DNA of 64,000 nt from Mustelus asterias (Eukaryota): assembly GCF_964213995.1 (NCBI RefSeq), contig NW_027590119.1, positions 1,612,001 to 1,676,000 on the forward strand. Reading direction: 5' to 3'. Both the position numbers and the translations under genes were made by a program. Position 1 is the first letter of the stretch, and every line of letters starts with the position of its first letter. Positions 21,283 to 24,409 of the stretch are shown in pieces. The notes under the pieces are model-generated. The model made no database searches and was not told the origin of the DNA. It worked only from the letters and a program-made list of their open reading frames with translations.

Positions 21283-21874
21283 CTGTGTCCAGGGCAGGAA
21301 GCAGTGAGCATGGATCTGTTAATCAGCCTCAATCAGCACCTTCAGGAGAATTGGGAGGGTGAATATTAGATACAGCAGAGTGAGAATGGAGGGAGAGTGT
21401 GTGGAATGGAGATTTACAGCTTTTTGGGACTGAAATAGGAAAGAATGTTCCATAGAAACTAGAATTGTCTGTTCTGAATTTCTATCCTGTACTGACACTG
21501 ATGACTTTTGTAAATTCATTTTACAGGATATTGAAAGAGGAATCACAGGCCGAAATCTCAAATGTCATGTCAGATCTGACAGTCATATTCCATGGGAGCT
21601 GAATATCATCAGCCATTGAATCTAGAAGGAGAAATGATTGTCCAGTTTGTCGATTTGAAAAGAGTTCGACCATCAGTGTGACTGGAAAAGCACCAACACA
21701 CGGCCACACTGGAGTGAGAGTGTTCTAGTGCTTGGACTAAAGAGCTTTAACCAGTTACACAGCCTGAATAAATATCACACCATTCACAGCGGGGAGAGAC
21801 TGTAATCTTGTTCTATGTGTGGACGAGGCTTTAAGTGATTGTCCACCCAAGACAGAGGTCAGGACACCTGCACC

Positions 21875-22549
21875 ATGGAGATACCATGGAAATGTGGGGA
21901 CTGTGGGAAGAGATACAGATCCCCATCACAGCTGGAAACTCATCGGCGCAGCCACACTGGGGACAAACCATTCACTTGCTCTCAGTGTGGGGAGGGATTC
22001 AGTCATTTATCCAGCCTGCGGACACACCAGCGAGTTCACACTGGGGAGAGACCGTTCACCTGCCCTCAGTGTGGGAAGGGATTCACTTGTTCATCCCACC
22101 TGCGGAGGCACCAGCGAGTTCACACGGTGGAGAGACCATTTACATGTCCTCAGTGTGGGAAGGGATTCACTTGTTCATCCCACCTGCAGACACACCAGCG
22201 AGTTCACACTGGGGAGAGGCCATTCAGCTGCTCTCATTGTGGGAAGGGATTCACTCAGTTATCCAACCTGCGGAAACACCAGCGAGTTCACACTGGGGAG
22301 ACGCCATTCAGCTGCTCTCAGTGTGGGGAGGGATTCACTTGTTCATCCAGTCTGCGGAGGCACCAGCGAGTTCACACCGGGGAGAGACCATTCACCTGCT
22401 CTGATTGTGGCAAGGGATTCAGTCAATCATCCAACCTGGTAAAGCACCAGCGAATTCACACTGGGGACAGGCCATTCACCTGCTCCGTGTGTGGGAAGGG
22501 ATTCACTCAGTCACCTCACCTGCTGAAACACCATCATGTTCACGAGTGA
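21875..22549 (+). CDS. C2H2 zinc-finger protein, 8 fingers
   Basis: Open ORF MEIPWKC...; gcaccATGg Kozak; acceptor ttttacag at ~21526; close paralog of 9301-9975. Confidence 0.9.
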
Positions 22550-22826
22550 CTGCAAGGACTGAATTTTGCTGTTAATCACATCGAGGTCCCAACCATTTTC
22601 ATTGGTGTCTGTTTCTGCTGATGTTAATAAACCCGAGCCCAGTTGTAAGATTTGTATTGTGGATTGTCTTGTCTGAGTCCTGAACTCGTAAATAAAAACA
22701 AGAAGTGCTGTAAAAACTCAGCAGGTCTGACAGCATCTCTGGAGAGAGAAACAGAGCGAATGTTTTGACACAGAAGAAGAGTCACATTCAACTGGAAACA
22801 TTAACTGTTCCTGTCTTTACAGATAC

Positions 22827-22985
22827 TCATGATGTGGAGATGCCGGCGTTGGACTGGGGTAAACACAGTAAGAAGTTTAACAACACCAGGTTAAAGTCCA
22901 ACAGGTTTATTTATTGGTGTGGCTTTTGCTACCAAATAAACCTGTTGGACTTTAACCTGGTGTTGTTAAACTTCTTACTGTGTTT
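22827..22985. mobile_element. Hairpin mini-PLE
   Basis: ~55-bp inverted repeat of the pLTR end. Confidence 0.85.
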
Positions 22986-22991
22986 ACAGAT

Positions 22992-23340
22992 TTTTTAATT
23001 TTTGTTTATACTTTTCCAATTCAATCAAATCAAGTCCAATTCAGAGTCTCAACAAGTTGAGAGATCTCAGATCCAGGCTGACAAGACAGGGCGAGCGACC
23101 AAACCACCCTGTCCTGGGCCTGATCTACATGAGCCAAGCTGATTGGAGAAGGGGGAGGTTCCTCTTCCAAGACTTGAGCTCATTTGCATCTTAGCCAAAA
23201 GGCCGAGATGCCGCTTTAAAAAATTGCTTCATATGAAACATATGAAGCTTCAGTGTAACCTAATGACCTCAACCAAGTGCGGCCGACCATGGGCTGCTGA
23301 CCATACTACACTTGATCTTAGCCAAAAGGCCGAGAAGCGA
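22992..23340 (-). mobile_element. U2 snRNA-headed, A-tailed short retroelement (SINEU/Keno-like candidate)
   Basis: 23303-23340 reverse complement equals U2 nt 2-39; internal second U2 piece at 23188-23208; A-rich tail at ~22992-23015. Confidence 0.7.
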
Positions 23341-23344
23341 CTGT

Positions 23345-23650
23345 AAGAAGTCTCAAATATTCTGTCTGGAGACAATACACATTTCTTTAACTGTGCTTAA
23401 TGTTCCCTCCACCCACATTGTCTGTACATTTAAGACCTGGCTGGCTGTAGGATTTGCATTCTAATCAGTATTCTGCAACTTGATTTTGTCTGTTTGCACT
23501 GTTTGAGAGCACATTTCCACTCCATCTGACGAAGGAGCAGTGCTCCGAAAGCTTATGGTATTTGCTGCCAAATAAACCTGTTGGACTTTAACCTGGTGTT
23601 GTGAGACTTCTTACCGTGTTCACCCCAGTCCAACGCCGGCATCTCCACAT
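23345..23650 (+). mobile_element. PLE pLTR fragment with hammerhead at 23522-23558
   Basis: ccat-CTGACGA-a-ggagc-agt-gctcc-GAAA-gc-tt-atgg followed by the pLTR end. Confidence 0.85.
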
Positions 23651-24409
23651 CTTTACAGATACTGTCAGACTTACTGAGATTTTGCAGCAACTTCTGCTTT
23701 TAGAATGACGGTGAATGCTGGATACATGAATCAGAGATTAGTGTAAAACTGGGATCTGCTCCTAAATCAAAGTGAAACAGCAGGTTAAAGTTTCCAGTCT
23801 GAAAAGTACTATGGTTATTATACTATATCTACCATTTTAAGGCTGGTTTTAACTCATTTAAAATAAACCTATTTAAAATATATTTGTTAAAGTCAGTATT
23901 AAAATACGAGTTGGATGAGTTCACAGGAGCCTGTTAACCGCTGGGACAATTATTCAACAAACATTGGATCTCCAGATAGAGAAGAAGCTGCAGTTTGTTT
24001 GCAGGAATTCCCTGTTTTATTGATGTGTGTGTGTTAGACATCAGGATAACTAAAAATACACAAACCTGGACATCAATGGTGATCTGATTGACAGTTACTC
24101 TGGGAATCACTCCCACTGTGAAACTTCAGCACTGACACTGCTGAATGTTGTCGGCTCAGGGAGTGGGACCTCCAGGAGTGGACTGTAAAAAAGCTGGGTT
24201 TCAGTCTCCTGACTAATATATGGTGAGGAACCAGAAAAATCCTTACTGAGGAACTGCCTGGGGTTTTACCAGTGTAGGTTCAGGGGCGAATGATTCCTGA
24301 CTCCCTGAAATGTCTGATATTGAACCCAGTTTGGAACAAGATTCATTCAGTTTCCAGGAGAATAGGGACAAATATCACCCACAACTGAGAGAGAGAAAAA
24401 CAGCCACCT

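Follow-up and report, generated by a model that had tools for sequence, protein, structure and literature searches.

Short retroposons headed by U2 small nuclear RNA sequence are known from crocodilians as SINEU-1, -2 and -3, which, in the excerpted text of PMC4494074, have a U2-derived head, a length below 500 nt, an A tail and thousands of copies, repeatedly acquire U2 pieces, lack both a recognizable promoter and a LINE with the same 3′ end, occur as tandem copies around a target duplication, and have a Tx1-type partner that is itself U2-headed. The same excerpt leaves SINEU transcription as an open question, noting that the promoters of U1 and U2 are located upstream of the genes, and it confines the families to crocodilians, gives them a Mariner target in common with Tx1-Mar, and mentions no copies residing in snRNA genes. 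Keno (Tx1 clade) and Utopia occupy U2 itself, at a site given as nt 39 in the excerpt of PMC4640811. For R2 in 28S genes, annealing to the target has been postulated, and the accompanying SIDEs are LINE deletion products that are rare, rDNA-confined and ribozyme-released (excerpts of PMC3774820 and PMC3414825). In the open literature, a scope that leaves Repbase, Dfam and subscription journals aside, we came across neither a U2-headed SINE described from cartilaginous fish nor a SINEU placed inside U2 genes, and no shark SINEU is named in the excerpts of PMC4640811, PMC5786205 and PMC5381603.

The element described here is a real, young, abundant, non-coding U2-headed retroposon family of Mustelus asterias. 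It has in common with SINEU the traits listed above, from the U2-derived head to the U2-headed Tx1-type partner and the lack of a recognizable promoter, as well as a fixed high-copy unit, the absence of a tRNA, 5S or 7SL head, and internal oligo-T. Unlike SINEU, it inserts together with its partner at nt 38/39 of U2 genes, has residents behind U2 upstream sequence and includes dispersed copies that carry this flank. It also differs from Keno and Utopia in being non-coding and not derived from a LINE, and from R2 SIDEs in being unrelated to its LINE, in its genome-wide distribution and in needing no 5′ processing if its start is U2 +1. We also considered an R2-type SIDE, assembled from the two ends of the partner LINE, and rejected it, since BLASTN matched the element to the LINE only in U2 pieces and words of at most 11 nt.

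We examined one copy within the window, i.e., the whole 64,000-nt stretch of DNA analyzed. The copy, 349 nt with its tail, lies on the minus strand at 22992–23340. As the initial annotation had noticed, it opens with U2 nt 2–39 (23303–23340): in an alignment, 38 of 38 nt of minus-strand 23340–23303 are identical to the U2 gene of the same genome, and the head ends at the U2 base that both the LINE and the element use for insertion. Behind the head come ~295 nt of body and then, as also noted there, an A-rich tail of 16 nt (22992–23007). The ~290 nt originally given for the body was therefore about right, but its description as free of U2 was not, since a second U2 piece, nt 6–26, sits at 23188–23208 on the same strand. 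This piece is likely a relic of an earlier head, and in older subfamilies it reaches nt 31, with an insert. Around it (window 23181–23214, minus strand), CGGC precedes the piece, as it precedes U2 +1 in the main genes, and an octamer word follows; this short match is suggestive only, and might go back to a former residence in a U2 gene.

The remaining parts of the copy, all on the minus strand, are a subfamily-specific junction or loop directly behind the head (23281–23302), a degenerate antisense arm whose predicted pairing partner is U2 nt 11–34 of the head (23257–23280), and a hairpin-rich 3′ body (23008–23187) in which we found no match to the partner LINE, a tRNA or any other Rfam family. 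Runs of four to six T occur inside the head and body, and no open reading frame of at least 100 aa overlies the copy. MicroRNA matches near the element fell below the cut-off and were positioned on the neighboring inverted repeat, and were thus rejected.

The element RNA is predicted to be well folded (z −5.7), with pairing between antisense arm and head that only one of 1,000 shuffles equaled in stability. Across 47 copies the helices are kept, 98.6% of cells being able to pair, and the differences between subfamilies in this alignment are concentrated directly behind the head. Since the two-sided changes (2 of 61 pairs) do not exceed those of shuffles, 312 of 500 of which scored as high, the fold stands as a prediction rather than as proven. 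Full masking of the branch-point-pairing GUAGUA was rejected, with two of its six nt predicted to be paired in this copy and up to four of six in the consensus.

The copy is a blunt insertion with no target duplication, the T at 23340 being common to head and target as a 1-nt microhomology. It splits the target site into an upstream half (23341–23346, minus strand) and a downstream half, which begins ATCTGT (22984–22991, minus strand). The flanks had been predicted to rejoin as an empty site, and this site is real: a paralogue, L280 on C107, which shares the middle junction but lacks the element, reads ACAGTATCTGTAAACACAG there. The 9-mer AGTATCTGT, which is U2 nt 35–43, occurs three times in the 64-kb window versus 0.41 expected, at 23655–23663, 22819–22827 and 51229. 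Two of these copies flank a composite repeat of direct and inverted pieces (22828–23651), an earlier insertion that left the site in three copies and within which the element now sits; this repeat may be Penelope-like. The outer site copies, both on the minus strand, lie at 23652–23665 on the left, a site present once in repeat-free paralogues, and at 22815–22827 on the right. Thus, the site copy reported at 23651–23666 and the 9-mer that it shares with U2 were correctly read, but the copy is not an independent mimic: it is one of three produced by the earlier repeat insertion, and the one at 22819–22827 had been missed. The arrangement of the composite repeat differs in L280.

The host locus is a duplicated zinc-finger unit. 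Its C2H2 zinc-finger reading frame (21839–22549, plus strand) neighbors the element as part of the duplicated gene-cluster unit and is given as context. Among 1,521 candidate paralogues, the 40 that were scored are 97–100% identical. Of 30 fetched, five contain the element, as a single insertion that was then duplicated, 22 have neither the repeat nor the element, two have other repeat pieces, and the last is L280. The window copy would be a dispersed insertion whose target resembled U2 almost perfectly, and duplication of the zinc-finger cluster later amplified it five-fold. The window as a whole (1–64000) is a cluster of C2H2 zinc-finger arrays, with 84-nt repeats at ~10 places and several minisatellites, and many paralogues of the zinc-finger unit, at 97–99% identity, lie on small contigs.

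To size the family, we counted exact matches to a 21-mer of the 3′ end, which gave at least 4,207 copies, and exact matches to the head–body junction, which gave 572 for the window's subfamily; the SINE-like family suspected at the outset was thereby borne out. A search with the body returned 1,859 candidates, of which the 40 scored were 97–100% identical, with one neighbor at 91%, and the head was joined to the body at 29 of 29 other fetched loci. An unselected sample consisted of 96 of the first 100 listed 3′-end matches on C1. The 5′ start of these copies fell at U2 nt 1–5 in 43, within nt 6–39 in 31 and further in for 22, so that head sequence, whose retention the initial annotation had proposed to tabulate, is kept in 74 of 96. 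A loose test found target duplications in 53 of 96 copies, a few of them false. A strict test, which set aside 23 copies with family neighbors and 13 loci judged tandem or doubtful, left 27 sites with target duplications of 8–22 nt; together with A tails and 5′ truncations, these are the marks that family copies bear.

Four of 186 copies have 11–20 A>G changes and no more than one T>C; conversely, T>C reached 11 or more in none of the 186 (largest, 8), the totals being 242 A>G versus 197 T>C. The A>G excess is what edited sense RNA would leave, presumably through ADAR. Older copies (L006, L018 and L204) have an AATAAA word before the tail, which is absent in the young subfamilies and present in the LINE. 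In sequencing runs of seven other organisms, 21–50% of sampled element words were present; these are word shares only, and shares below 0.2 were disregarded. Among the sequencing runs listed, no RNA run held element words.

A Tx1-type, U2-targeting LINE, as the initial annotation had anticipated, is present in the same genome, in an 8,035-nt U2 unit on C24 and in the U2 array on C21, where its A tail is followed by U2 from nt 39, as in Keno and Utopia (excerpt of PMC4640811). Its ORF1 has ZCCHC3-like and zf-CCHC domains and its ORF2 APE, RT and zf-RVT domains, and a U2 piece is also found at its 5′ start. Homologues with names are "transposon TX1" proteins at 39–48% identity, and no protein labeled Keno was among the matches. 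There are 24 exact matches to the junction of tail and U2 nt 39, most of them LINE-derived. No full-length uninterrupted ORF2 was present in the loci examined. A word from the LINE 3′ end has 707 matches, with U2 following in one of 30 sampled, five of these 30 ends matching the LINE in that word only; the U2 specificity of the LINE is relaxed, not strict. At L059 and L270 (C24:41.74–41.76 Mb), U2 genes contain an older LINE subfamily, 75–88% identical, together with apparent internally deleted, SIDE-like LINE derivatives in which the 5′ end is joined to the 3′ end.

The expectation that this LINE would share its 3′ end with the element failed: a BLASTN comparison of the element with the entire LINE found U2 pieces and words of at most 11 nt only, and the two 3′ ends, which both show a similar AAAGTAT word before the tail, have nothing in common beyond ~7 nt and the tail itself. 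What the element does share with its Tx1-type LINE, as compared with the partner trait of SINEU, is the U2 site and common duplications: an element copy adjoins six of 30 sampled LINE ends, several with one common duplication. We conclude that the element is likely copied by a Tx1/Keno-type LINE; since no 3′ sequence is shared, another LINE that reads A tails could also move it.

We then turn to the U2 genes themselves. On C24 these form arrays with units of 1,833 and 8,035 nt, and a second U2 type on C21, in 448-nt units, scores 170–175 bits and is 87–90% identical to the main type. U2 nt 38/39 is the insertion point of the LINE and of the element alike. Exact U2 nt 38–50 comes right after the tail in six element copies, of which one lies within an isolated U2 fragment and shows a 14-nt duplication, and one C24 gene holds an element, a truncated LINE and a further element in a row, with copies of U2 nt 39–54 between them. 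Residence of the element in U2 genes, which the initial annotation had postulated, is directly visible behind native upstream sequence: on C24 the head replaces U2 nt 1–38 and 400 of 400 upstream nt equal those of the intact neighbor gene, and on C21 the head again replaces nt 1–38, with upstream identity of 98% over 258 nt and without duplication. Truncated LINE copies, lacking their 5′ part, also occur right after U2 nt 1–38 (L064).

Most second-type U2 copies at L258, L259 and L261 (C21:28.05–28.08 Mb) are broken by the LINE or the element. In the 1,833-nt array on C24 (L054, L055 and L056), seven sampled U2 copies have one and the same internal reiteration of approximately U2 nt 19–36 and have thereby lost the insertion site; these could possibly be marks left by insertions that aborted, or alleles that resist targeting and are spreading through the array. 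Pieces of the second array also appear as moved blocks at L063 (C1), L065 (C14), L267 (C8), L268 (C7) and L273 (C1991), two of them with bounding target duplications.

Two pattern searches for U2-gene flank joined to the head bear on the source of the element RNA. They returned 13 matches, comprising the two array residents, four moved array blocks (C1, C8 and, twice, C14) and seven dispersed loci off the arrays. The latter, which are few, represent six events, and the flank before their heads, from upstream of either type of U2 gene, is just 4–13 nt long; in three events (L244, L250/251 and L254) target duplications enclose the copy, and in four of the six a further U2 fragment stands in front, which template switching could add. 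One flank-bearing locus, L249, belongs to the window's subfamily. With chance estimated from the ~9 of 96 sampled copies that fit the strict head, fewer than 0.1 matches are expected in the 7-nt flank class, where three events were seen, and 1–2 in the 5-nt class, where three were seen (one extending to 7 nt), a class that alone is near chance. Since dispersed copies carry upstream flank of the U2 gene, the source RNAs likely came from U2 loci, and the blocks on C1 and C14, in which element-bearing U2 genes are bounded by duplications, indicate that such loci are transcribed and retrotransposed. Measured against the nearest dispersed copy in the sample, the two array residents diverge by 8.7% and 3.4% and so are not current masters; the C14 block copy is 1.1% away. 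The junction and flank searches turned up no member of the window's own subfamily resident in a U2 gene, and an extra 5′ G from the cap, sought by eye in the fetched copies, gave no clear signal. Judged from these sequences, source copies in U2 genes probably borrow the U2 promoter.

Insertion into a U2 look-alike, as first proposed for this copy, applies to the window, where the match is unusually good, but not to the family as a rule. Tails followed by TCTG number 160 versus 46 for a control word (11 of these 46 look like duplicates of one insertion), which, given a background TCTG/control ratio of 1.36, is an excess of ~2.5-fold. TCTG nevertheless follows only ~4% of tails, an approximate figure whose denominator comes from a longer word, and in the 96-copy sample it follows none by script and one by eye; strict U2 mimicry was therefore rejected as the rule. 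The consensus at the 27 strict sites is weak: A precedes the insertion at 24 (background 27%), and among those 24 sites RYA is found at 17 (background 31%, p = 7e-5) and AGYA, the upstream half of the U2 site, at eight (background 4.5%, p = 6e-6). The sampled flanks are otherwise varied, as compared with the SINEU preference for Mariner-N4_AMi.

Sites are also reused. A family neighbor lies beside 23 of 96 copies, compared to one of 95 controls, far beyond what the weak AGYA word explains, and the explanation is incomplete. Tandem partners differ by 4.5–14.6% in 27 of 28 pairs and are hence separate insertions. In 21 of 28 pairs the upstream copy looks younger, five pairs having been chosen by likeness to the window copy. 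Both partners start at the same U2 base in nine of 22 pairs (12.8% expected, p = 0.001; five pairs come from two loci), which fits annealing of new cDNA to the resident head. A promoter at the 3′ end that drives the downstream tandem copy was unsupported, because the tandem spacers are local target duplications. At L214, L224, L226, L240, L177 and L181, the loop behind older heads is a hot spot of antisense insertion, a U2-like site on the opposite strand, and the antisense arm may possibly have originated there.

From these observations we propose a cycle. RNA polymerase II would start at U2 +1 and read through an insert in a U2 gene; with such a start, the head would represent the first part of a host transcript rather than an internal promoter. 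LINE ORF2 would reverse-transcribe the element RNA from its A tail at the nick, and most insertions, at weak (A)GYA sites, would be promoter-less dead ends. A rare insertion in a U2 gene would found a new master and subfamily, the U2 end of the cDNA annealing to the target by the logic postulated for R2 (excerpts of PMC3774820 and PMC3414825), and turnover of the U2 arrays would later remove resident masters. Taken together, the U2 arrays could be a renewable nursery, in which each return to nt 38/39 restores a full head and promoter through homology and starts a new subfamily, while heads that draw insertions to old copies make thousands of dispersed heads into decoy pads and the antisense arm keeps the U2 piece from acting as U2; we advance this fuller picture tentatively, at slightly less than even confidence.

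Several other origins have to be weighed against U2-gene sources. Masters might lie outside U2 genes, under an unrecognized internal promoter, a host promoter or that of a tandem neighbor, with the U2 residents as dead ends. The 3–9% separating array residents from sampled dispersed copies would fit, as would the excess of family neighbors and a well-conserved ATGCAAAT octamer in the body, octamers having a role in snRNA enhancers. Against such masters, inspection by eye of the 96 copies found no common 5′ extension of non-U2 sequence, and the extensions that do exist are U2-gene flank; a tRNA is absent, the spacers between tandem copies are local duplications, and the T runs speak against polymerase III, as in a like argument in the excerpt of PMC4494074. 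We regard masters outside U2 genes as unlikely.

It is considerably less probable still that the copies are independent chimeras, each formed as reverse transcriptase switched from a body RNA lacking the head to U2 snRNA. This is contradicted by a junction that is fixed, at the insertion base, in 572 copies of one subfamily, and jumps to the snRNA would not bring gene flank from upstream of +1; head-less copies moreover start at scattered points, their sole common upstream sequence being antisense family copies. Extra U2 fragments of variable length before some copies do resemble such jumps, which are described for SINEU-2 (excerpt of PMC4494074) and R2 (excerpt of PMC3414825). That the body is a 5′-truncated 3′ UTR of Keno or another LINE, and hence a known element, we consider scarcely credible: despite the AAAGTAT-like word before both tails and the truncated LINE behind U2 nt 1–38 at L064, the BLASTN comparison refutes it for the partner LINE, and ORF2 sequence is absent from the 400 nt preceding each of the 22 head-less copies. 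None of the outcomes named in advance as adverse to the original proposal was thus encountered, the body being multi-copy, the heads kept and the body not the 3′ UTR of the partner LINE. Promoter borrowing by copies in U2 genes accordingly remains our preferred reading.

Compared by description only, convergence with crocodilian SINEU is likelier than common descent. The family extends the snRNA-headed design beyond crocodilians and gives a concrete, testable answer, with named loci, to how snRNA-headed SINEs are transcribed. It also presents a U2-targeting LINE of relaxed specificity that feeds a passenger ~six times as numerous, which is relevant to the tolerance of U2 arrays for parasites and to site-directed retrotransposition with short RNA cargoes. 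If the nursery reading is true, the family would have a SINE life cycle that cycles through a host gene, and this would be a general answer to the transcription of SINEU.
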